Of a DNA stretch of 64,000 nt, positions 3,104 to 63,100 are shown piece after piece. The DNA is from a virus, in IMG/VR virus record IMGVR_UViG_3300005732_000005, positions 76,375 to 140,374 of that record, one strand, 5' to 3'. Under the pieces are notes generated by a model, which saw only the letters and a list, made by a program, of their open reading frames with translations, did not search any database and was not told where the DNA came from. How positions within the stretch are numbered: the stretch's first letter is position 1; every line of letters begins with the position of its first letter. The position numbers and the translations under genes were made by a program.

Positions 3104-3484
3104 TTACTTATAAGTAGCTTCTCGGTTACCAGCTAGCGAATCTTGGTAGAAGTAGATTGAATATGTACCTGTGACACTTGTTGGAGTAACTGTTACTGAA
3201 TGCACCCAGTTATTTTCGATAGTGAATGATTGTAAATCTGCTGCTGAAAGTGTAACAGTTCGTGCTGCTCCCGCCGCATCTAGTAAGACTTCATCATTAG
3301 CTTTAGGATGATACTTCACATGAAAAGCTAATGTACCTAAATCATCTGTTGTGTTTGCGTATGCAAAAGATACTTGTGTAACAGGTGCTCTCCAATGACT
3401 AAGAACAATCTCTTGAGCACCATCTGCCTGAGTAAGTCCTTCTACTTCTGTTGTATACTTTTCCACTTCGCCTAAATTTGCCAT
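3104..3484 (-). CDS. small beta-rich putative structural protein
   Basis: 126 aa, AGGA RBS, late-type motif upstream. Confidence 0.5.
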   Translation of the reverse strand: MANLGEVEKYTTEVEGLTQADGAQEIVLSHWRAPVTQVSFAYANTTDDLGTLAFHVKYHPKANDEVLLDAAGAARTVTLSAADLQSFTIENNWVHSVTVTPTSVTGTYSIYFYQDSLAGNREATYK

Positions 3485-12469: not shown

Positions 12470-13735
12470 TTAAAACTCTATGTCGTAAAAACAGTTTCTA
12501 TTATCACCAAGCACTTCTTTCCAACCATCCCTCATAGTCTGTATCAGAAGGTCTCTATCATTAACTGAAACTACAAAACTATCGTGCCAAGGAAGTACAC
12601 ATTTACTAAGGTTCGTGAACACGTTTATAACATAAGCTGCAATCTCAGAATCATAGTGTTGCAACATTGCCCACAAATCTTCTTTACCAAACCAGTGAGC
12701 TATATTTTCATTCTTTTCAATAAGCCTATCGAATATTTTTGTTATATCTCCCTTCCCAAGACGGATACCTTTGAATTCAGACTTTTCTGAGAATATCTTG
12801 AACAAAGCTGCTTTTGCTGTTTTAATATCCTTGGAGTTAAGTAGACACATCATAGCATATTTACTTAAAAGTCTGGATGAATTTGTATCATCACCCTCTC
12901 CAAGTATATCTTTTATACAACAGTAAGGTTCCCAACTCATAGGTTTATAAACTTTATCTATTTCCATTAAGATTCTAGGGTGCATCTGTTTAAAATCAAC
13001 TTCTGTTGTTTTCATTCCATTAATGGTTATGTGTTTCCTGAACTCAGATCTGGTAGTTTGTAAACAACTTTGAGTGTACCACCTACCATGCTTATCTAAA
13101 CAGTCAGTGAAAACTCTTTTATATACTGCACAAACAGGATGCATTTTACACCTTATATCGAAAGCTTCAAGAACCTTATTATACTTTACTACAAGCTCTC
13201 TTTTATTCTTTATACCTCTTAATTTACTTAATTCGGTAATAAGGTCTCCCGTCTTAGAATCCCTAAGTTCGATAAATGTTGCAACAGGAAGTGGTCTACC
13301 TACACGCTCCATATCTACCTTATCAAAAACTTCTATAAGTCTATCAGTTATAGTGTAGCAACTTTTTAAACTGGTATTTGTTTCTAGATCAAAGAAACCT
13401 TTATACAGATTTATGTAACCTAGTTTATCAAGTGTTTCAACAACCCTCTTACACTTTACATAAGAGATCTTACTTCCATTAAGTTCATTTGCCTTTGTGT
13501 AATTAGCTTTTCGTAAGGAAAACATGCTACCACTAAGTCCCTTTTTTATAGGGTTAATAGCTGATGTGATAAAAACCCAAACCTCTTTTTTGTGATTACT
13601 AGGTAAGTACTTCATAAAATGATTGTGGACAGGTATAAGCTTCTTATTCTCATTGAAACCTATATAGAAAGGTTCACAACCTATCGTTATTAATGTTCTG
13701 TCTTCTGGAGATAGATCCTTTAGATTTATTGTCAT
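12470..13735 (-). CDS. minimal PolA / T7-RNAP-like polymerase (TV-Pol-like) with probable N-terminal winged HTH
   Basis: HGRWY pre-motif, motif A EVDFKQMHPRIL, motif B SRLLSKYAMMCLLNS, LQHYDSEIA, motif C VLPWHDSFVV; no exonuclease domain. Confidence 0.7.
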   Translation of the reverse strand: MTINLKDLSPEDRTLITIGCEPFYIGFNENKKLIPVHNHFMKYLPSNHKKEVWVFITSAINPIKKGLSGSMFSLRKANYTKANELNGSKISYVKCKRVVETLDKLGYINLYKGFFDLETNTSLKSCYTITDRLIEVFDKVDMERVGRPLPVATFIELRDSKTGDLITELSKLRGIKNKRELVVKYNKVLEAFDIRCKMHPVCAVYKRVFTDCLDKHGRWYTQSCLQTTRSEFRKHITINGMKTTEVDFKQMHPRILMEIDKVYKPMSWEPYCCIKDILGEGDDTNSSRLLSKYAMMCLLNSKDIKTAKAALFKIFSEKSEFKGIRLGKGDITKIFDRLIEKNENIAHWFGKEDLWAMLQHYDSEIAAYVINVFTNLSKCVLPWHDSFVVSVNDRDLLIQTMRDGWKEVLGDNRNCFYDIEF

Positions 13736-13877
13736 TACATTCACCTTCGTTATTTAGGTTAATATTGTTAATCATTATGTAATTTACGCATTTAAGTATA
13801 TAAGTGGCTCTGGACATACTAGCTCTATTAGAATCAATATACTCTAATATAGGTCTAGGAAGTATCAATTTCAACAT
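13674..13877 (-). CDS. ribbon-helix-helix (CopG/Arc-like) DNA-binding protein
   Basis: MLKLILPRPILEYID...MSRATYILKCV: beta strand, helix, SR-helix pattern. Confidence 0.6.
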   Translation of the reverse strand: MLKLILPRPILEYIDSNRASMSRATYILKCVNYIMINNINLNNEGECNDNKSKGSISRRQNINNDRL

Positions 13878-13970
13878 AAGTATTTCTCCAATAAGTATGT
13901 ATATAGTTAGAAAGGGGAGTTCATATGGTTCGCTAAAAACTATAAAACCTATATAAAATAATCACTTAAC

Positions 13971-14201
13971 CTACGTTTTTTGAATTCGGTTTGTTAAATG
14001 TATCTCTATTTCACCTCCCAATACCTTAATAACTTCTACTATTACATCCACACTTACATCAGATCCTGACCTAGTTAAAATAGAGGTTAATTGGGATTTG
14101 TGAAAACCTCCATCTCCCATCGCAACTATTTGGTCGTAGGTGAGCTTGTTTTCATACTTGAGAGTTTTAACTATATCGCAAAGCTTGCTTTTAACATTCA
14201 T
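13971..14201 (-). CDS. XRE-like HTH regulator
   Basis: LTYDQIV..G....SQLTSIL...VSVDVIVEVIKVLGGEIEI. Confidence 0.65.
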   Translation of the reverse strand: MNVKSKLCDIVKTLKYENKLTYDQIVAMGDGGFHKSQLTSILTRSGSDVSVDVIVEVIKVLGGEIEIHLTNRIQKT

Positions 14202-14448
14202 TTGATTTCTCCTGTTCATAATACATTATACCATGAATATTTCTATATACCAAGTTTCCTGAACAACTATAAAAGTAGGTAGGTTTTATCAAGATTATTC
14301 TCCTACAAATTACCCCTATTATACAACTATGGTGCCCTCTAAGACGTAAGTCTATGTTTCATAAGGAAAAGCACCTCTAAAATTACCTATCACTGGAACA
14401 CTAAAAAACCACTCCCATTTGCAACAATTTTCCTTCGAAATAATGACC

Positions 14449-16753: not shown

Positions 16754-17473
16754 TTAAATAAACTCATCCTCTTTAAGTTTCTTATGTAAATAAAGCTCAC
16801 CTTTTCCAGTGACCATTGTTACATTGAAAACTCGACTGTTCCTAGTAGTCTGTTTCACCACAAAGTAACCTTGATCCACAAATCTTTGGTAAGGGCGGTT
16901 GTTGTCCATAAGGATCTTAAGTTCTCTTAATTTATCGTATAGCTTATTCCTGCCTACACCAAGAGCTTTCGCTACACTATTCATATCCTGCAGATTAACT
17001 ACCTCACTAACATCATTGGCGAAATCAATCTTGTGCTGATTGTCTTTTCTGAAAATCAGTCCTTCTCTGATTATAGTTTTAGCATCTGCAGGTAAGTCTT
17101 TGTAGAATGTCTCCATAATAAGGTCTACATCACTAACAAAACCACCTGTCTTACGTATTGTTGGTAATACTTCTTCCATCACCCAATCTTGGAATTCTTC
17201 TGCATTAGACATCCTACTCCTCATTACCAACCTATACACATCTTTCTCAGGGATGAGTTTAATACCTGTAGGTTTTGCATCCATACCTAATTCTAACGTT
17301 TCGTTATAATTAAGTTTAATCAAGAACTTACAATGGTCTTTTAAGGTTTTACTAGGATTTGTGTACTCTAGTATCTTACAAACCTCGTTACCTACAAAAT
17401 AAGGTTTATCCTCATAAACCACCACTTCCAATTGACCAAAAACTTCATGGTCAAACTTATTCACTTTCGTCAT
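16754..17473 (-). CDS. BRO-N + ANT/KilAC antirepressor
   Basis: FGQLEVV..PYFVGNEVCKILEY...PEKDVYRLVMRS...FQDWVMEEVLPTIRKTG; C-terminal GRNKLY..LR...PYQRFVDQGYF..VTGKG. Confidence 0.9.
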   Translation of the reverse strand: MTKVNKFDHEVFGQLEVVVYEDKPYFVGNEVCKILEYTNPSKTLKDHCKFLIKLNYNETLELGMDAKPTGIKLIPEKDVYRLVMRSRMSNAEEFQDWVMEEVLPTIRKTGGFVSDVDLIMETFYKDLPADAKTIIREGLIFRKDNQHKIDFANDVSEVVNLQDMNSVAKALGVGRNKLYDKLRELKILMDNNRPYQRFVDQGYFVVKQTTRNSRVFNVTMVTGKGELYLHKKLKEDEFI

Positions 17474-36980: not shown

Positions 36981-37274
36981 CGTTACAGTCACACAAGGTC
37001 GTTAATCTTGCGCGGTTCTCTTATGAACTCCTGTACGTCTCCGTACAGACTAGACTATATCTTTCTCTTCAACTTTACTTGTTAAGAGATCTGCCGTTTC
37101 GATTTAAAGCTTTCCGCTACCACTTGGCTCTACTCCCATCTCAGGGATAGTCGTTACACGTTCAAGAACATAATGTTCAAGCTTCGCTCGGTATTGTCTC
37201 TTCAAAAGAAGTAACTTCCACCGAATTAGACAGTATTCAATTATAGGTTTCCCTATAAAGGGGCTAATTATTTA
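36981..37274 (-). ncRNA. group I intron (IA-type, no ORF), 294 nt
   Basis: P1 GGU|UAA-AUAA-UUAGCC with U.G; P AAUUCGGUGGAA, Q AAUACCGAGC, R GUAACGACUA, S AAGAUAUAGUCUA, terminal G; removal gives KGITYG|IMYG. Confidence 0.95.
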
Positions 37275-39233
37275 ACCATAAGTGATGCCTTTGCCACCTT
37301 GCCTAGTTACCTCCCTTCCTGCAGCCTTGGAGTAGTTTTCAGCATTTCTTGAGTGAGCATCTTCTTCCTCCATTATCCTAAGATATTCTCCTCCGTCAAA
37401 GTCATAGGCTGCCCACGCTGCACACATCCCTTCCAAGTTACTACCATCGATACCTAGTTGCCAGAATCCTTTTGGAACGGTGAATAAGCTCCTCATTTCA
37501 TGACCTAAAAGTGCATCTGTAGAAGGTATATTTGCTATAACTGAGTGTTTTCTGCGATTCGTATTGGTCAGACCACTATATCTTGCAGGTAATTTACCAT
37601 CTATTTTCAGACGAGGGTGGTTCAGCCAACCAGTTTCCTTATCTTCGTCAAAAGCTTTAATTACCGACCTCCTGTTACGAAGAGATAGCCACTTAACTAT
37701 CTGACCCGCCATCTCACCATCAATCTTTTCCAGATTAGGGCAAAGCTCCCCACGATCATCTTTCAACTTTGCAGACATCGGTAAGAATCTTCCCTTTTTA
37801 ACCACCCTTTGCATATCTTTGTGCTTCTCAGAGGTGATTTTCCTAATATCGAAGCCCATCTCCTCATTAATCCATTTTATGTAGATGGAGTCCTTCTTAT
37901 CCTGCACCCATTCCCATGCCCTTTCCAAGACTTCAAATTCTGGGCGGTTCTTCTTGTTCTCGTCTCTTGTAACATCTTTTGTTCCTAGTATGGTAGGTAT
38001 CCAACCACCTTCCTTAACCAACCACTCCTTTATATCTGCCTGATTAGCTAGTTTCATCGGCTCTTTTAAGAACTCTTCTGGAATATGTCTATCCTCTAAT
38101 TGTTTTCTTAGTTTCTTCATCTGGTCATCAGGTAAAGGAACTAAGGTATTAGCTTTATTAAGCTGACCACGTATAAAATCGGGCATCTTATCTTCATCCT
38201 CCACACCCATCTTAATACAATAGTTATAACCGTTCTTACTTAGAGATCCGTCCTTCTTAAAGGCAGTTTTCGGAGGAGATACGTGTTGAAAGTATTCCTC
38301 ATTAGGTTTGTAGCCTAAATACTTTCTTGCATAGTTCCATCCGTGACTACTTATTTCCCCTGCCTTATCAAAAGGATTAGCTGGAAAGTTAGGTTGACGA
38401 CTCTCAGGTACATGTTTTAAAGGCAGTTTGGGTTCCACATCTTCCTCTATTTCCCTCATCATACTATCCACTTTCTCAAGCAATTTCCAAGCAGCCTTTT
38501 CATCGAAGACTACTCCCTGCTCCTCTTGGATTTGCATCAGATAGTCTGATTGAGAATTTCTTAATAAGGGAACTCTCCAATCAATACCCTTATCCTTCCC
38601 ATCCTGAGATTCTTTAACCAAAGCTTGCCATTGCAATTCATTTATGATCACATCAACCCATACTCTGTCGCAATACTTCCACAAAGGTAGCCCTCTCCAG
38701 TCTTCTATTTGAACTTTTTGATTTGCAAGCTTATAGCCCCAGCTCTCTAATGAATGGCTGCCAATCGTCTTAGCCTTACCTCCAGAAGGATTCTTAACCT
38801 TAGAGGGACATCCGTGAGGTAATGGTCGGTCAGGGTATAGTGCCCTTGACATACTTAGTGTATCAAACAATCTTAGTTTTCTACTACCAATACTTTCTGG
38901 AAACATACTTGATTCCAATCCAAATTGATCAGCGATTGCCAGCAAATCGAATCCAAACTGGTTTTGACAACCTATAGCAGAAATGTCAGAGTCGTTCTCA
39001 ATCCAATCAGGAAACTCTTTTAAATCTTTAATTCTTAGGTTGACATTTTTCTTATCAACAAATTCTTTTGCTTCTTTAAACTCGGGATGGGAGTGATCAA
39101 GAAAGATCACCCAATCATCTTTTGCATATTGTTTAAAGAGCATTACGTGAAAGTGCGTCATATGGTCTTCAGGTGCAATGCTTTTACCAGCTAAACCGTC
39201 ACTTTCAGTATCGTAAATATATAAGCCCTTCAA
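37275..39233 (-). CDS. polA: DNA polymerase family A, exon 1 (3'-5' exonuclease, motifs A and B); spliced product ~905 aa
   Basis: ExoI YDTESDG, ExoII NQFGFD, motif A GIDGSNLE, motif B RQGGKGITYG. Confidence 0.93.
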
Positions 39234-39246
39234 TACTTATCTCCTC

Positions 39247-41019
39247 TTAAAATGGTTCATCATCTTCCATATCTTCTTCGAAGTCGGGTAGAGGATCAAA
39301 GGTTTCTTCCTTCTCGTCGTCCCCTGCAACCGCTACCTCAGGTTCTTGATATCTTTGAACAGGTGTCCATTCACTCAACCTTTGACAGTATTCATCTTCA
39401 AGAAAGCCTTCAGGAGGCTCATCCAGAACCCCTGTATCTACATCATAGAACAAAGGTATTTTTGCTGTCCTACCGAACTTCCTATCATCTAGAACTAGGA
39501 AATGCCGTGTGTTTCTGACTTTTTCTGGTTGCTCAGGATCTTTATTGCCTTCTAATCCGAACATGTAGTGACAGGCTTGCATCATCGATCTAGATCCACG
39601 GAACTGACTACTCATAATCTTACCACCAAACTCGTGAGAAGGACCTCTCTCGGGAGCTTTCAGGTGGCAAAAGCAGTAGTAAGTAAAACCTAAATCTTGA
39701 CTCATCTTACTAATCTCATCAGCAAATCTTTCCAACTCTGTGTTGGCTTCTGCAGCACTCATACCAGCAGTTAAACGAGTAATAGGATCAATAAAAATAT
39801 CCTCTATATGCTCTACTAATACAGCGTGTCGTATAGCCCCCTTCAACTCATCCCAATTACAACGACCATAGTTATTGTACATCACTAATTTATGACCTAC
39901 AGAGTCTACAGCTTCTGTCAATTCTTCATGAGTGAAGTAACTATTTTTAACAGTTTCATCTAAAGGGTTTCCCCATATATCTACTTCATTACCTTCGTTA
40001 TTTATGAATATAATTTTCTCAGGATCAGAAAAGTTCTTCCTGTAAAACTTACCTGCTACTTTCTTGACAGTTTCATCTGGTTGCTCTTCAAATTTGAACA
40101 GAGCTACCTTTTGCGGATCTCCAAGTTTGTTTTTATCGTGAGTTGTTATGTGCTCAGTCAAAGTATCTACGATAACAGATTTACCCATCTTAACCCCTGC
40201 ACCAAAGTAATACCCCTCGCCTATACGTCTACCTAACGTAACTTTAGTAAGGCTTTTCCAAGGCCAAGGTTTACCTAGTGTAGGTAACTCAATAGCTTTA
40301 TCACGGATTTCATCATATTTAACAAAACCTTCAGGTGTAAACTGGATCGGCTTCATTAACGTCCAATAAAACTCTTCCTCTCCAAGTTCTTCCCAAGCTT
40401 CGCAAGGGTCTTTATCTTCAGGTAAACTCACAACTTTGATATCTGGTAGGAGTCCATACACATTTGCCGTTGCTTCTTTACCCTTAACAATACCTTTTAC
40501 TTTTTCATCGGCCGTTGCAGAATCGTTGTCAAAACATAGTATGTTTTCTGGGAACTTTTTCAAGTACTTTAAGTTATGTTTTTGGCCTATATTTTGAACT
40601 GCTGTAGCCGTACCGTTAGATATTGAAACAACACTTGGATTCCCAGAGGGATATTTGTTTTTTAGAGTTTGCCAAACAATCATGGCATCAAATTCACCTT
40701 CTGTGATCCAAATCTTCTTACCTCCAGTCTTATTGGATGCGTGAGTGCCAAACAAATCACATTTTATACCTTGATAACCAACCACATCAAAATGTCCTGC
40801 CTGCTGTTTAGGTTTTGTTAAATCTCTTTTCTTAAAACCTACAAGCTCTCCGTCAATGTGGTAAGGGAAGTAATAGGCGATAGGAGTTATACCGTCTTTA
40901 CCACTGTAAGCAGTTCTAACACCGAATTTCTCTGCAGTTTTCTTACCGATACCTCTACTATCGATCGCATCACAAGGGTAATTTAATATGTCCTCTAAAG
41001 TCTCTTTTGTGTAAGTCAT
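39247..41019 (-). CDS. T7 gp4-like primase-helicase
   Basis: TOPRIM ITEGEFD / CFDND / KDPCE; Walker A GAGVKMGKS; IFIDPIT, CHL, FRGSRS; acidic tail DDEPF; alternative TTG start at 41073. Confidence 0.9.
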   Translation of the reverse strand: MTYTKETLEDILNYPCDAIDSRGIGKKTAEKFGVRTAYSGKDGITPIAYYFPYHIDGELVGFKKRDLTKPKQQAGHFDVVGYQGIKCDLFGTHASNKTGGKKIWITEGEFDAMIVWQTLKNKYPSGNPSVVSISNGTATAVQNIGQKHNLKYLKKFPENILCFDNDSATADEKVKGIVKGKEATANVYGLLPDIKVVSLPEDKDPCEAWEELGEEEFYWTLMKPIQFTPEGFVKYDEIRDKAIELPTLGKPWPWKSLTKVTLGRRIGEGYYFGAGVKMGKSVIVDTLTEHITTHDKNKLGDPQKVALFKFEEQPDETVKKVAGKFYRKNFSDPEKIIFINNEGNEVDIWGNPLDETVKNSYFTHEELTEAVDSVGHKLVMYNNYGRCNWDELKGAIRHAVLVEHIEDIFIDPITRLTAGMSAAEANTELERFADEISKMSQDLGFTYYCFCHLKAPERGPSHEFGGKIMSSQFRGSRSMMQACHYMFGLEGNKDPEQPEKVRNTRHFLVLDDRKFGRTAKIPLFYDVDTGVLDEPPEGFLEDEYCQRLSEWTPVQRYQEPEVAVAGDDEKEETFDPLPDFEEDMEDDEPF

Positions 41020-41059
41020 CTTCTTATTACCCCCTGTTCTTTTGTTCTTATAATAACCA

Positions 41060-41551
41060 TCAGAATTTCCCAATTTCCATCTCCTCTAACTTTTTCAAAC
41101 CGTCACTAGCCTCACAAGCTAATCTATCCGCTAAGTCATTCATTGGGTGGTCGGAATGCCCTTTTACCCACTCCCATTCTACAGAGTGATATTGGCAAAG
41201 CTTATCTAACTTTTGAATAAGGTCTTTGTTCTTAACATCCTTACCGTTAGCCGTTTTCCACCCTCGCCTTTTCCAACCACTCAACCAAGTTGTCATACAT
41301 TGTATACAATACTTGGAGTCCGTTATTAACTTCACATTGCAAGGCTCCTTTAAAGACTCCAATGCTAAGATACATGCTGTGAGTTCCGAGATATTGTTAG
41401 TCCCTTCAGGTATAGGATGCGAAATCTCTTTCATTTTACCTTTATACAACAAAACAACTCCTGCTCCACCATGATACTTAGTTTTGTCCTTTATTTGTTT
41501 TATAGCACTTCCGTCTGTGTAGGCTACAACACACTTCCTCTCCCCACTCAC
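41060..41551 (-). CDS. rnhA: ribonuclease HI
   Basis: YTDGS, TNNISEL, TDSKY, WKRRGWKT, VKNKDL, WVKGHSDHPMNDLAD. Confidence 0.95.
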   Translation of the reverse strand: MSGERKCVVAYTDGSAIKQIKDKTKYHGGAGVVLLYKGKMKEISHPIPEGTNNISELTACILALESLKEPCNVKLITDSKYCIQCMTTWLSGWKRRGWKTANGKDVKNKDLIQKLDKLCQYHSVEWEWVKGHSDHPMNDLADRLACEASDGLKKLEEMEIGKF

Positions 41552-57978: not shown

Positions 57979-58059
57979 GATATGTTATAACATAACACTT
58001 TGCTAATGAGATGTTATATCGTAACAAAACGTTTTTGTAATGTTATATTATCACAAAAT
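57979..58059. promoter_or_regulatory. three tandem Zur-box-like palindromes, 29-bp period
   Basis: GATATGTTATAACATAACACTTT (57979), GAGATGTTATATCGTAACAAAAC (58008), GTAATGTTATATTATCACAAAAT (58037), compared with the gammaproteobacterial Zur consensus GAAATGTTATA-N-TATAACATTTC. Confidence 0.65.
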
Positions 58060-58566: not shown

Positions 58567-58986
58567 ATGAAGGTTACAAGGTTAGTAAGAGACTATCACC
58601 GCTACAGGTACGAGCAAAAGATCCCTTTATGTATCCGTAACAAGGTAAAAGAGATCTCTCTTCATCAAGTTATTAATGAACGTGTAGCAGAGGATATTAG
58701 ACGACCGATCCCTAAATATGTGTATAACCTTATGAAGCTAGACCGAACACCTAAAAGAAAAATAGAATTATTTATAATTCATGCATTTAGTGAAAAGAAT
58801 ACACGATTAATACGTGTAGTTTTTAATAGGTTTTTCGGTAAACTATTGGCATTATTAAAAGAAGGTAGAATCTCAATCAGATTTTATGATGATAGAGCTT
58901 TTAAGATCCACAATTATCAATTTATTTCAAACAATAAAAAGCATAATAACTGGTATACAAAACTTAAAAATAATGTTGACTTATAA
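58567..58986 (+). CDS. basic hypothetical early protein
   Basis: TTGACT-17-TATAAT promoter with A/T UP element at ~58499-58527. Confidence 0.6.
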   Translation: MKVTRLVRDYHRYRYEQKIPLCIRNKVKEISLHQVINERVAEDIRRPIPKYVYNLMKLDRTPKRKIELFIIHAFSEKNTRLIRVVFNRFFGKLLALLKEGRISIRFYDDRAFKIHNYQFISNNKKHNNWYTKLKNNVDL

Positions 58987-59044
58987 AAGCACCGTGTAAA
59001 ATGGTTACCAGATTTTGAGAAAACAATTTTTAAAAGGCTATAAC

Positions 59045-60073
59045 ATGCTCCCGAACAAACTAGGTACATGCTGCCAAATCCTAGACGCTAATGGCAAACA
59101 ATACAAAGATACTGTGATCGGCACTGTACAACAAGCCACACTGGACAAAATACTCGCACAAGGTTTGTTCAGTGATCATAAAGTTGTTACTTCTAACCCA
59201 GTTACTCGCCTAGACATATTACAAAACAATCAAGCCAAGTTTAAACAGTGTCATGATAAAGTGTTAACCAAGGTTAAGCAAAACCTATCAGCATTACATA
59301 AACAGCTTAAACACGTTGCACAAATGCCAGACGATTGTAAAATGTTCCGTATTAGTAGTAATCTCTTGCCAGTGTTTGATCATCCTGAATACAAGTATTT
59401 ATATGATGATAAAATGATCATTATTGTCGAGTATGGGTTATCTCTTTGCAAGAGAGTTATTGATGACTATGGGATCGTTGTGTCGTGTCATCCTGATAAA
59501 TTCTCAGTCATTAACAGTGATAAGGAATCTGTTCGTTTAAAGTCGTTTATTACCTTAGAATATCACCGTTATTTTATGGAACAACTCACAACTTATGATC
59601 AATCTTGTATCAATGTACACGTTAACGGCAAACTTGATCATACCCCAGAATTTGACAATGGTTTGTATCCTGAGCTTAGAAAATGGCTATCTATAGAAAA
59701 TGATTGTTCTATTAGTCACGCTGGAGTGCATGAAACGTTAGCTTATTGCCAAAAGTATAATATTAAAATGGTTTATGACTTGCATCATGATTATTGTGAA
59801 AATTCGGGCACTAAAAGACATGCAGATGATGATCGTACTATGGCGAGTATAATTAACACTTGGCAAGGACAGACACCAATCTTTCATGTATCAGATAGCC
59901 GCGACCCTTTAGGGTCTACCCCTAAAAAGTTAAGCCCTCATAGTGACTATATTAATTGTGAGAAAGTTGTTCAGCGTGTTAGTGAGTTGCTAGAATTTGC
60001 TAGGATTGAGGTGGAAAGTAAAAAGAAAAATCTCAGCACATTAGATTTACGAAACAAATTATTAAATAATTAA
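59045..60073 (+). CDS. uvsE: UV-damage endonuclease (UvsE/UVDE, TIM barrel)
   Basis: FRISSNLLP, SCHPDKFSVINS, NVHV, IEND, YDLHH, FHVSDS, PHSDYI, EVESKKK. Confidence 0.9.
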   Translation: MLPNKLGTCCQILDANGKQYKDTVIGTVQQATLDKILAQGLFSDHKVVTSNPVTRLDILQNNQAKFKQCHDKVLTKVKQNLSALHKQLKHVAQMPDDCKMFRISSNLLPVFDHPEYKYLYDDKMIIIVEYGLSLCKRVIDDYGIVVSCHPDKFSVINSDKESVRLKSFITLEYHRYFMEQLTTYDQSCINVHVNGKLDHTPEFDNGLYPELRKWLSIENDCSISHAGVHETLAYCQKYNIKMVYDLHHDYCENSGTKRHADDDRTMASIINTWQGQTPIFHVSDSRDPLGSTPKKLSPHSDYINCEKVVQRVSELLEFARIEVESKKKNLSTLDLRNKLLNN

Positions 60074-60148
60074 AATTAGTTGTTGACAAGGATAGTCTAT
60101 CTGCTAGTATGTATCTCAGTTAAGACAAACAATTTAAAAGGTTATGTT

Positions 60149-63100
60149 ATGAAAAAGTTATCAGTGAGTGAAAGAGAAGTTTTAGAGAAAGAGATTATTC
60201 AATTAAGACGTCAAAACTATGAACTAGAACAAATAGCACGTGAGGCAACGGAATCTGTGAAAAATCAAACCGATCTTTTAGATAGTATGATTAAACAAAG
60301 AGATGAATTTTTAGAATTATGTAAAAAATTAGCTAAAGAATTAAATTTAGATTTATTCGATTAAACCATTGACAGGGGATCAATTTTCCCCTAATATTCT
60401 AATTGTTCCCAAGGGAATGAAGCAAAGCTTCACCGCATAGCGGCATTTACTCAAGCAAACGGGAATTATCCCAAACTTAATAAAACGAGCATATTATGAA
60501 AAACTTAAACACTATCAAACACTACGCACTACCAACAAGAACACTTGCACGTCAATTCACTAACATTTTAAAAGAGCAAGGTCATAGCACAACTCAGCCT
60601 AAAAGTAAAAATTTAGATCATTGGCTTGTATCCACCAATACCAAGTTTAAAAAGCCTACTGCAAAGAAAGTGTTTACTGTTGTTAATGGGCAAGCTATCC
60701 AAGCTTAATTTAAAATAAAGTAATTTTCTTATTGACAGCTATTAACTTTTGAATAATAATAATGGTTGTCAATTCAAAAAGATTATTTAATTAAAATATG
60801 GTGAGATTATGAGTGTATCAGAATCAATCAAAGTAGGTTTTAACTGGTCGCAAGATTGGGATCAACTATTCACAGAGTGTGAACAACAAGCACAGACAAT
60901 TGATCAAGATTGGGAAAACGGATCAACACAATATAACTTTGTTGATAATAGCTGCCTTGTAATTTGTGGAACTTTTGTAAACAGTTACAACGCACAAAAT
61001 TAATTAAAATTTTTACAAAATAATCATTGACAGCCTGACACAATTTGATAAACTGAACGGGCTTTCAACAAACAATCTAAATCTTAGGAAAATATTATTA
61101 TGAAAACTTTCAACGCTTCTACAAATTGGCTAAACGGTGATGACAAGCACGAGCAAAAAGGCCGTGATCACTTTGCTGGGGTTCTTTCAACTCTAGAATT
61201 TTACCAAGAGCATGGAACAAGCTTAGAAGGCTACGAGCATGAAGGTAAAACCCGTAGAGATTTATTAGAAGAAGGTTTCGACCGTCACGAGGTGAAGGAA
61301 ATACTGGACATAATGTACGAGTTTGAACATGGCTGTGGTTCTTTCTATAACTACGGTTTAAGCTTTGATTTTGTGGAAGCAGACGAAGAGACAGACGGCT
61401 ATTATAGATTCCAAATTTGCTGGGGCGGTCCTTCTAGTGAGATCAGATTCTTTCCAGACGGACAAATAGAGGCGGTTTACATGGATTGGTTTGTTGGTGT
61501 AGGTTTTAACGTTACAACTTGGGACGCTTTCAACTGGTTAGGGAATTGGTTCAAAGAGTGCGAATGTATAGATTTCTATTCTAAAGAGATGAGCGAAGTT
61601 TGGGCAGAGGATTACAGAATCGTAAACGGCCTTTGTGAAGACGAAGAGGAATATTAATCAACAAACATTCAAACGAGGCAATACGCCCCAAACAATCTAA
61701 ATTTGAAATAGGAATATATTATCATGAAAATTTCACCAATGAAAAGAAAAGTAAACCGTCTACACTCAGAAAGCTATGAGCGCGGCCTTGAACGTCAACA
61801 AGAACATAAATCTGTTAAAACGAGTCGTAACATTGCTCGAAAGAATAAACGTCTTAAAATGGCTATGGGAGCGTAAAGGATGATGGTTAATTCAATTAAC
61901 GCTTTTATCAAGAACCTATTTGCAGACAAACAGCCCGAACAAGATGTAATAGTTGTTCAAAGTGTAAAAGATTTGTTTAACCGTGGTTATATGCTCAACA
62001 GTGAACAACTTTTTGATGATGCAATAGAACGCATTAAAAAGAATAGTTTAACTTTAAATATTAGTTTACCAGACAGGGAGTTAGTTTTTAAAGAGGGGGT
62101 TTTGATATGCAAAAGTTAGAAGACTTGATCGCCAGTGCTTATACTTTCTTAGAGTTTGGTAAAAGTTTTGCAAATTATCAGAGTGATTTAATAAATTTAC
62201 AAGATGGACTTACAAGAGAACAATTGAGAGGTGATTGGGATATGATAAGAGCGGATTACAATCTAGTTAAAAAGTATATGACAGATACCGCCTTACAGCA
62301 CGCTTATAGTTTAGTAAAGGATCACTATTAAACAAAATATTGTTAGATAATGATCTATCTATCCGTAGCCGATCATTTTCTAAAGTGGTCGGCTTTTTTG
62401 CACCTAAAATAAGCTCAAAATAAATTTTGAATTTAATTGAAATTATTTATTGACAAGGGTGCTTTATGTGATAAAGTTATACATATTGAAGCAAGGGACG
62501 TTCCCAAGCAAATTAATTGAGTGAGAAAAGGTATGAATACAAACATCATATACAAGAACGGCACAAACGGTGTGAAATGGTTCAAGGATTATTCTGCGGC
62601 TAGAAATTTCTTTTTCAAAAATCGTGATAGTGTAAAGAGTGTGACAGATAGAATGGGGAATAGAGTATAATGGATGGTGCAGAGATTATGAAAGAAGTTG
62701 AGAGGGTGAAGCAATCAACTAAAACAATACACCTTTTAAATGAATTGTTGAAAACAAAACTTGACAGCAATCAACACTACCTATTAAGTGAAATTATTAA
62801 AAGTTATGGAAAAGAGTGGGAATAATAGTTGATCTTTAAATAATAGGCGTTTACAATAGCGTCTATTGATAAAGAAGCTTTAACAAAGCAAACATTTAAC
62901 AAAGAGAGAATTTTAAAATGTTACAACTTGAAACTAGTGAACTATACGAAAAAGAGCTTTTAGAGTTTTTAACTGAAAGGATGGATGATGGCTGGGGAAA
63001 ACCTTTTGAGCTTTTCAGTGAAGAAGACAAAGAAACTATATTAGAAGAGTTTGCAAATTCAGCACAAGAACAATTCGAAAATCTAGGTTATCAAGAAATA

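Follow-up and report, generated by a model that had tools for sequence, protein, structure and literature searches.

A minimal polymerase of the PolA/T7 RNA polymerase superfamily in ICP1-type phages, possibly a priming enzyme of the replication origin

The phage genome IMGVR_UViG_3300005732_000005 (IMG/VR) is complete at 140,374 bp, with direct terminal repeats. Its right-hand 64 kb (positions 76,375 to 140,374; this stretch of 64,000 nucleotides (nt) is the window, and coordinates are those of the window unless the genome is named) encodes on the minus strand a protein of 421 amino acids (aa) whose predicted fold is that of a right-hand polymerase of the PolA/T7 RNA polymerase (RNAP) superfamily. 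The genome belongs to a group of 115-145 kb myophages of Vibrio, Pseudoalteromonas, Aeromonas and Shewanella that has ICP1 among its members. The protein is very probably an active polymerase, and the role that we favor for it, with a probability of roughly 0.4, is that of an origin-specific priming polymerase. The gene, its predicted domains and its active-site motifs are:

12470-13735, minus strand: minimal polymerase gene, 421 aa (PHROGs family phrog_4756, E 3e-129; AlphaFold2 predicted local distance difference test score (pLDDT) 91.5)
13295-13645, minus strand: predicted winged-helix domain, aa 31-147 (order H-b-H-H-b-wing-b in the model, with structural matches)
12473-13294, minus strand: predicted catalytic core, aa 148-421, with reduced thumb, GR hairpin, palm and fingers (Foldseek and VIA-align)
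13076-13087, minus strand: GRWY, aa 217-220, the T/DxxGR hairpin motif; R218 corresponds to Klenow R668
12980-12997, minus strand: motif A, D247-F-K-Q-M-H252, with the catalytic Asp D247 (12995-12997) and a His at the steric-gate position
12836-12874, minus strand: motif B (O-helix), R288-x3-K292-x7-N300; RLLSK, aa 288-292, lies at 12860-12874
12578-12586, minus strand: motif C, H384-D385-S386, with the second catalytic Asp; HD lies at 12581-12586

The open reading frame (ORF) in full spans 12470-13744 (-) and gives 424 aa from an alternative GTG start at 13744. The ATG at 13735, behind the ribosome-binding site GAAGGTGA, is the likely start, and the resulting 421-aa version agrees with database protein P0001.

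The AlphaFold2 model, made with 24 homologues, reaches a pLDDT of 91.5 and a predicted template modeling score (pTM) of 0.87. Foldseek returned 95 matches in the PDB at E<=1e-3, and the best 50 of these 95 are all family-A DNA polymerases, led by the apicoplast polymerase (Pol) at 5e-7. VIA-align, an independent all-against-all structural search, aligned residues 148-421 (236-258 of them for the apicoplast Pol, yeast mitochondrial RNAP, Aquifex Pol I and T7 RNAP), with these Z values:

Apicoplast Pol: 14.8
Yeast mitochondrial RNAP: 13.8
Aquifex Pol I: 13.3
Pol nu: 13.2
T7 RNAP: 13.0
Klenow fragment: 12.8
N4 RNAPII: 8.2

Because these values are similar, family-A DNA polymerases and the RNA polymerases of the superfamily tie as structural relatives. 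The modeled core comprises ~270 aa, with the thumb cut down to about one helix. Neither the model nor the fold searches reveal an exonuclease domain, and the model also lacks a promoter specificity loop and a T7-like N-terminal domain, with no hairpin between the last fingers helix and motif C. The predicted winged-helix domain (aa 31-147) matches the winged helix-turn-helix (HTH) of CodY, Z-beta of ADAR1, Nse winged helices and ribosomal proteins (VIA-align Z ~5), and two family members have weak Pfam winged-helix matches (HTH_34 and Cdc6_C). In BFVD there are 11 close structural relatives in phages, one of which, in Rheinheimera phage Barba31A, is annotated 'DNA polymerase'; ordinary phage PolAs rank next.

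Conservation was counted over 79 homologues with 22-41% identity to the query. G217, R218, R233, D247, Y271, K292, H384 and D385 are invariant in these relatives, and Y220, E245, H252, R288, N342, L358, Q359, D362, S363 and S386 are conserved in at least 90%. An earlier sequence-only reading of the window had described a protein of ~421 aa without an exonuclease that carries GRWY, the motif-A Asp, RxxxK and HD. Checking of the coordinates confirmed these motifs where they had been placed, and their conservation in the 79 homologues goes well past what chance would give. The same reading had named structure comparison with PolA and T7 RNAP as a check on its proposal; that comparison gave a right-hand polymerase fold, with both catalytic Asp residues, D247 and D385, invariant.

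Aligned with E. coli Pol I by hhalign, GRWY pairs with TATGRLSS, D247 with D705, H252 with E710 and R254 with R712; the E-value of 0.11 is not significant alone, and the register is as expected. GRWY aligns also to KRGRTY of N4 gp15. Set against reference motifs taken from the actual T7, N4 and E. coli sequences, the phrog_4756 family compares as follows:

After the hairpin Arg: GRxY in the family; RGRVY (T7) and RGRTY (N4); GRLS in E. coli Pol I
Between motifs A and B: DPY in the family; DIY (T7) and DAY (N4); DIH in E. coli Pol I
Motif C: HDS in the family; HDS (T7) and HDC (N4 gp16); HDE in E. coli Pol I
D+5 (steric gate): His in the family; Gly in single-subunit RNAPs; Glu in E. coli Pol I
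O-helix: Asn in the family; Tyr in single-subunit RNAPs; Tyr in E. coli Pol I

The family consensus of motif B ends in LN, with Asn replacing the Tyr of PolA and T7 RNAP. Thus, the GRxY, DPY and HDS positions agree with the RNA polymerases, and the D+5 and O-helix positions fit neither class. Lacking are the family-A hallmarks of a steric-gate Glu (Klenow E710), an O-helix Tyr-Gly (Y766-G) and HDE, in place of which we find H252, N300 and HDS. Also lacking are the T7-type RNAP hallmarks of a Gly at D+5 and a Tyr639-type O-helix residue, where the protein has His and Asn. The choice between ribonucleotides (NTP) and deoxyribonucleotides (dNTP) is not readable from the sequence.

The polymerase gene is the last of three in a minus-strand operon, which runs from an extended -10 promoter through an HTH gene, a 93-nt gap and a gene for a 67-aa protein to the polymerase. 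The elements that precede the polymerase gene are:

14225-14253, minus strand: putative sigma-70-type promoter with extended -10, TTGGTA-17-TATAAT (TG present, 10/12 matches), upstream of the HTH-RHH-polymerase genes
13971-14201, minus strand: 76-aa HTH protein, first gene of the operon (82 aa if the start is 14219), with PF13744 and PHROGs matches
13674-13877, minus strand: 67-aa ribbon-helix-helix (RHH)-like protein (phrog_31326, E 8e-16), overlapping the polymerase start by 62 nt

The operon promoter is supported chiefly by its position, because such sites are no commoner in the region than in shuffled sequence. The HTH-small protein-polymerase trio is syntenic in phages 249E41-1, PWH3a-P1 and ICP1 (ORF98-99-100). 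In ICP1_2006_E it corresponds to gp100-102 at 58,588-60,618, with the polymerase as gp102. The theta origin of ICP1 was located by a peak of reads at 8 min 'near the 60 kb position', in 1-kb bins and with ICP1_2006_E lacking CRISPR-Cas (Barth et al., PMC7145576). Reviews call the description of the ICP1 replisome incomplete and state that the phage has no RNA polymerase of its own (PMC9040626, PMC13595925). The ICP1 papers name no replication initiator.

A second link to replication comes from distant members of the family (26-28% identity), which in two small viral contigs adjoin a Rep_3 initiator and an HK97-type capsid gene. The related-locus comparison, with alignment of close relatives, covered 6 loci. 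The two Rep_3 contigs (IMG/VR, 8.8 and 6.6 kb; L015:2643-4663 and L016:607-5051) are GC-rich and encode polymerases of 376-377 aa, and L016 also carries a BrnT/BrnA toxin-antitoxin system. These contigs could represent a phage-plasmid or a satellite with a two-part replication module.

The third line of evidence is the set of promoters in the genome. Early and replication genes have TTGACA-N17-TAtaaT promoters, and late or structural genes have an extended -10 of the form TGTTATAAT. The exact 9-mer TGTTATAAT occurs at 13 sites in the genome (window positions 597, 3528(-), 5932, 9586(-), 18118, 26644 and 43243, plus six outside the window). It is usually followed by A or T, and most copies precede structural or late-looking genes by 20-105 nt and lack a -35 box. 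In sequence, TGTTATAAT looks like a class of phage late promoter, and its form suggests host RNA polymerase acting with a phage factor that makes a -35 element dispensable. No phage-specific promoter consensus of at least 14 nt was identified in the genome apart from ribosome-binding sites. Because all promoter classes found are sigma-70-like, a general phage RNA polymerase is argued against, and we regard that role for the 421-aa protein as weakened. The promoter classes appear to fit the use of host RNA polymerase throughout, as the ICP1 literature assumes. Taken together, the position of the ICP1 origin, the Rep_3 context and the promoter classes therefore point to replication rather than general transcription, and the first two lend circumstantial support to the origin-priming idea put forward in the sequence-only reading.

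We propose that the gene would be transcribed early by host RNA polymerase from the extended -10 promoter, with the HTH and RHH proteins probably regulating the operon or helping to choose the target. The winged helix would place the enzyme at the phage theta origin, in or near its own operon, where the core would make a short primer de novo or extend a nascent strand. The T7-type primase-helicase and PolA replisome of the phage would then take over. Genes for both are in the window, the primase-helicase at 39247-41073 (T7-gp4-type/TOPRIM-type, phrog_239) and the replicative family-A polymerase at 37272-39233 (-) (phrog_17); the latter bears out the statement of the sequence-only reading that the phage has a separate, full replicative PolA. 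Such a scheme would resemble origin priming by T7 RNAP and mitochondrial RNAP, and also CcPol-MP as a PolA-based primase. For ColE2 Rep, T7 RNAP and mitochondrial RNAP at origins the concept is the same, in that one protein recognizes the origin and makes the first primer; the fold of ColE2 Rep is different, and transcription is the main job of those RNAPs. Among PolA-type enzymes, CcPol-MP is able to prime (PMC7581432; bioRxiv 10.1101/2022.12.02.518924).

Several observations weigh against an origin-priming role. The ICP1 origin is resolved to kilobases only, and, if the engineered genome served as the mapping reference, the CRISPR-Cas deletion upstream could displace ICP1 coordinates by a few kb. 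With a TOPRIM-type primase-helicase of its own, the phage has no obvious need of a second primase. Neither iterons nor a marked AT-rich unwinding element were found beside the operon. More distant phages have the polymerase without its HTH and RHH partners. Several of the signature residues, namely GRxY, DPY and HDS, are RNA-polymerase-like, and gp16 of N4 RNAPII is the best targeted profile match among five reference enzymes. Finally, the comparison with TV-Pol enzymes made below takes gp030 of Microcystis phage Ma-LMM01 to be the published TV-Pol on the strength of its transposase context and motifs.

The strongest rival, which we consider unlikely, is that the protein is a small, specialized RNA polymerase that does in one chain what the N4 RNAPII heterodimer does in two. 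It would act on limited phage templates, such as certain middle genes, a non-coding RNA, or DNA that is single-stranded or replicating, and be targeted by its winged helix or by the HTH and RHH proteins. GRWY, DPY and HDS side with the T7 and N4 RNAPs and not with E. coli Pol I, gp16 aligns with motifs A, B and C in register (E 7.8e-5 per sequence, the best of the five), and the VIA-align Z values include 13.8 for the yeast mitochondrial RNAP, 13.0 for T7 RNAP and 8.2 for N4 RNAPII. One family member has a weak PF00940 match and one Atlas cluster is auto-named RNA polymerase. Such an enzyme would also meet a gap in the ICP1 papers, according to which no phage RNAP is known and the control of the expression programme is unexplained. 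Against it, both residues that let T7-type RNAPs accept NTPs are changed (Gly to His at D+5, Tyr to Asn in the O-helix), the model has no specificity loop or T7-like N-terminal domain, and the promoter classes are all sigma-70-like, with no phage-specific promoter of at least 14 nt. This explanation merges with origin priming if the product is a primer RNA made at the origin.

It is less probable again that the protein is an auxiliary DNA polymerase that extends primers without initiating chains. Residues that grip the primer-template are kept (R218 as Klenow R668 and Q359 as Q849, judged by MQGTAAD and LQHYDS as local patterns), DFKQMHPR in motif A is similar to DYSQIELR of DNA polymerases, and a bulky His occupies the steric-gate position. 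The annotation of the Barba31A relative as 'DNA polymerase' and the occurrence of TV-Pols in transposon-like elements (PMC2579912) are in keeping with this role. However, a near-absent thumb fits poorly with processive synthesis, and early expression and fusion to a sequence-reading winged helix speak for action at a specific site. The gene is moreover single-copy and syntenic over a wide phage clade, with no transposase, integrase or terminal repeats near it.

A part in countering host defense or manipulating the host, through a nucleic-acid product such as a decoy or signal-like oligonucleotide and with no role in replication or transcription, seems very unlikely. The gene does sit among small early genes of unknown function, with an anti-repressor-like gene adjoining, and early phage regions are rich in counter-defense genes. 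Its conservation across phages of Vibrio, Aeromonas, Shewanella, Pseudoalteromonas and Klebsiella is nevertheless unusual for an accessory counter-defense gene, and the Rep_3 neighborhood points to replication. Least credible, to the point of near dismissal, is a catalytically dead fold serving only as a DNA-binding initiator or regulator: the winged helix, the DNA-binding partners and the view that some PolA-SSB members are vestigial (bioRxiv 10.1101/2022.12.02.518924) would suit it, but the 79 relatives show no variation at either catalytic Asp, at the hairpin Arg, at the O-helix Lys or at the motif-C His.

The family to which the polymerase belongs is large. A profile search of 1.8 billion representative proteins recovered 5,902 clusters (at 50% identity) at E<=1e-3 and 3,773 at E<=1e-10, and the best 150 of the 5,902 matches are mostly of 400-460 aa. 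PHROGs assigns the protein to phrog_4756, of unknown function, and the family occurs in phages of Vibrio, Aeromonas, Shewanella, Pseudoalteromonas and Klebsiella. It has no model in Pfam or NCBIfam. PF00476 (DNA_pol_A) does not match the 421-aa protein or any of the 79 relatives, nor any other protein of the genome at E<=0.001, the phage's own replicative polymerase (PHROGs phrog_17) included. PF00940 (RNA_pol) matches one of the 79 relatives (E 0.005), and the name of the single auto-named Atlas cluster is 'DNA-directed RNA polymerase family protein'. Searches of PDB sequences with phmmer and the family profile returned no polymerase, and no HMMER-level similarity to any PDB chain was detected; matches to EF-hand proteins and ECs1815 were rejected as noise. 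We identified no paralogue of the polymerase in this genome, and some relatives have two places for it. In the literature on ICP1 gp102, TV-Pol, CcPol and PolA-type phage primases, we found no study of the phrog_4756 family.

More sensitive comparisons place the family near the TV-Pols, which are predicted to prime and are found in transposon-like elements (PMC2579912). A filtered profile search of the Ma-LMM01, N4 and T7 genomes gave no match, and weak links were recovered only by unfiltered hmmsearch and hhalign. Among five reference proteins, unfiltered hmmsearch found ICP1 ORF100 (1e-74) and N4 gp16 (7.8e-5), and nothing significant for E. coli Pol I and T7 RNAP; an hhalign alignment to T7 RNAP was discarded for its wrong register. 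Microcystis phage Ma-LMM01 is listed as the carrier of a TV-Pol element (Iyer, Abhiman and Aravind 2008, PMC2579912), and its gp030 (506 aa, adjoining two transposases, in agreement with the description by Iyer et al.) is the sole scoring ORF among 63 (hmmsearch E 3.7e-4). A profile of gp030 and five homologues matches the family profile by hhalign at E 7e-5 (probability 63%). The alignment spans 177 columns, starting at the GR hairpin and ending at motif C, and every motif is in register. The TV-Pol comparison was made with this gp030 family. Derived marks common to both families are R-x-Y after the hairpin Arg, D-x4-H, K-x7-N (K-x7-N-G in gp030) and LQ before motif C. The shared marks and the profile match lead us to treat phrog_4756 as a distant, distinct branch of the TV-Pol assemblage, and the comparison with TV-Pol drawn in the sequence-only reading was apt. 

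Like TV-Pol (gp030), the 421-aa protein has a minimal PolA/T7-RNAP-type core without a nuclease, the hairpin Arg (R218), two palm Asp residues (D247 and D385) and the fingers Lys, here within RxxxK (R288 and K292), and priming is predicted for both. The two differ in that the link is visible at the profile level only, the gp030 family lacks the Arg of RxxxK, and the winged-helix N-terminus of phrog_4756 does not align to the N-terminal region of gp030. Furthermore, phrog_4756 is a fixed gene of large lytic phages with a full replisome, and the linkage of TV-Pols to a D5-like helicase, resolvase, integrase or transposase is not seen: none of these was found within several kb in the window, ICP1, PWH3a-P1 or 249E41-1.

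The only PolA-type primase shown by experiment is CcPol-MP of SCCmec (Bebel et al. 2020, PMC7581432), likewise a PolA fold on a mobile element without proofreading and with a small partner from the same operon. In the 2023 PolA reclassification (PMC10201439), CcPol falls nearest to the CHEAP PolA subfamily, with three helices of the exonuclease retained. Its partner is an OB-fold protein encoded downstream and followed by a helicase, whereas the phrog_4756 protein has no PF00476 match, has its HTH and RHH partners upstream and has no adjacent helicase. The gene downstream of the polymerase is not conserved, being unrelated among four phages (here it encodes a 105-aa protein), and its candidacy as an MP-like partner was rejected on that ground. 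N4 RNAPII (gp15 and gp16; PDB 6dt7), the smallest known T7-like polymerase and also an early phage product, has the same order of motifs at similar spacing, with GRxY at the end of gp15 and then A, B and C in gp16. It consists of two chains with 673 aa in total, Gly at D+5, an O-helix Tyr-Gly and no winged helix, while the phrog_4756 protein is a single 421-aa chain in which His stands for the Gly and Asn for the Tyr. With Klenow, the apicoplast Pol, Pol nu and the T7 and mitochondrial RNAPs the protein shares the palm and fingers fold and the catalytic constellation (Z 12-15), but its core of ~270 aa has a thumb of about one helix and no exonuclease or promoter-binding domain.

Both upstream genes described in the sequence-only reading were recovered. 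The HTH protein matches PF13744 (HTH_37) at E 4e-5, with 23.7 bits under Pfam's 27-bit cut-off, phrog_8994 at E 1e-21 and phrog_2339 ('HTH DNA binding protein') at E 1e-4. Its start is probably the ATG at 14201, behind AGGAGA, rather than that at 14219, because the latter falls inside the promoter. For the overlapping, CopG-like RHH gene, the model of the 67-aa protein shows an extended N-terminal stretch followed by two helices (8-17 and 23-36) and a disordered tail; residues 1-40 have a pLDDT of 79-92. All six Foldseek matches are RHH proteins (YiiF, CdbA, CopG and AmrZ among them), at weak E-values of 2-10; CopG superposes on the model with a root-mean-square deviation of 1.9 over 37 columns, and Pfam gives no match. 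The gene is kept in relatives. Its C-terminal tail (NEGECND; 13735-13780 -) is more conserved than the N-terminus, although disordered in the model. Because the ribosome-binding site and start codon of the polymerase are read there in the other frame, the constraint on the tail is probably on nucleotides, reflecting translational coupling or a regulatory site.

The full set of three genes does not accompany the polymerase everywhere. HTH orthologues lie upstream of the polymerase in 249E41-1, PWH3a-P1, ICP1 (ORF98) and a further locus (L014), and one contig with a polymerase of only 27% identity still keeps the HTH gene. Both partners, HTH and RHH, are confined to the Vibrio-phage clade; upstream of the polymerase, phages of Aeromonas and Klebsiella carry different small genes. 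In a distant relative, Vibrio phage 1.101.O (L031:3152-3730), a 192-aa protein annotated as winged-helix DNA-binding directly follows the polymerase with a 1-nt overlap, and an XRE-type HTH of a different family precedes it. DNA-binding partners thus recur beside polymerases of the family with non-homologous proteins. The idea of a plasmid-like cassette was rejected, since relatives were found in only 2 of 72,556 plasmids, with one copy cut by IS21. Overall, the observations of the sequence-only reading held in all their parts and its interpretation in part.

Two non-coding gaps, at 13878-13970 and 14220-14448, had been called AT-rich in that reading. The gaps exist, with a GC content of 0.26-0.31 against 0.33 in the surroundings, an AT-richness that is only slight; they resemble ordinary promoter regions, with promoter-like signals and without iterons or obvious origin repeats. 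DnaA-box-like arrays were not found beside the operon, nor any Rfam family in 11-19 kb, and GC skew was rejected as a locator of the origin because it follows gene orientation. Two sequence elements were identified in the HTH-RHH gap:

13917-13933, minus strand: conserved 17-nt element GCGAACCATATGAACTC, almost unchanged in 249E41-1 (L002) and in a J2-1-like contig (L011)
13934-13957, no strand assigned: 9-nt tandem repeat, 2.7 copies of TAAAAACTA (Tandem Repeats Finder score 34; TAGKTTTTA on the minus strand)

The rest of the gap differs in 249E41-1 and the J2-1-like contig, and GCGAACCATATGAACTC is unique in the 140-kb genome at <=3 mismatches. Its possible roles are those of an operator, part of an internal promoter or a site of initiation. 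A third copy of the TAAAAACTA repeat lies inverted at 14280-14288; the repeat is weak evidence because the motif occurs 21 times in the genome.

The polymerase operon lies ahead of the tail genes of the window, which begin at ~19.7 kb. The leftward block of early genes that contains the operon also encodes a 239-aa Bro-N/anti-repressor (Ant)-like protein at 16754-17473 (-) (phrog_130, E 5e-61). A Bro-N/KilA-C protein is also present in the Brucella TV-Pol element of Iyer et al., which may be coincidence. Palindromic overlapping repeats of the type TATGTTATAACATAACA occur near both genome ends, at genome positions 3111-3119, 4573 and 134355-134360 (the last is window 57981-57986). These could be operators or sites related to packaging or replication; a rolling-circle origin of ICP1 has been reported near the pac site, at the genome end.

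ICP1 is a leading model of conflict among phage, satellite and host, and its theta origin is known from read depth only. The question of its initiator is directly testable, because the candidate gp102 (ICP1_2006_E) offers clear catalytic targets for mutation. As the family is large yet absent from Pfam and NCBIfam, a polymerase of this kind goes unannotated in many phage genomes. The mixture of DNA- and RNA-polymerase hallmarks, with both sugar-selection positions changed, bears on the evolution of nucleotide choice and of de novo initiation, and very small polymerases are of practical interest. A bolder proposal, which we advance tentatively and hold to be doubtful, is that the enzyme of ICP1-type phages is the smallest single-chain, template-directed polymerase known in the T7-RNAP/PolA superfamily (a ~270-aa core plus a winged helix), one that would start chains de novo at one site and so combine origin recognition with primer making as a (RNA) polymerase. 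If true, this would be a third route to origin priming besides the DnaG-type and archaeo-eukaryotic primases, and one widespread in marine phages.

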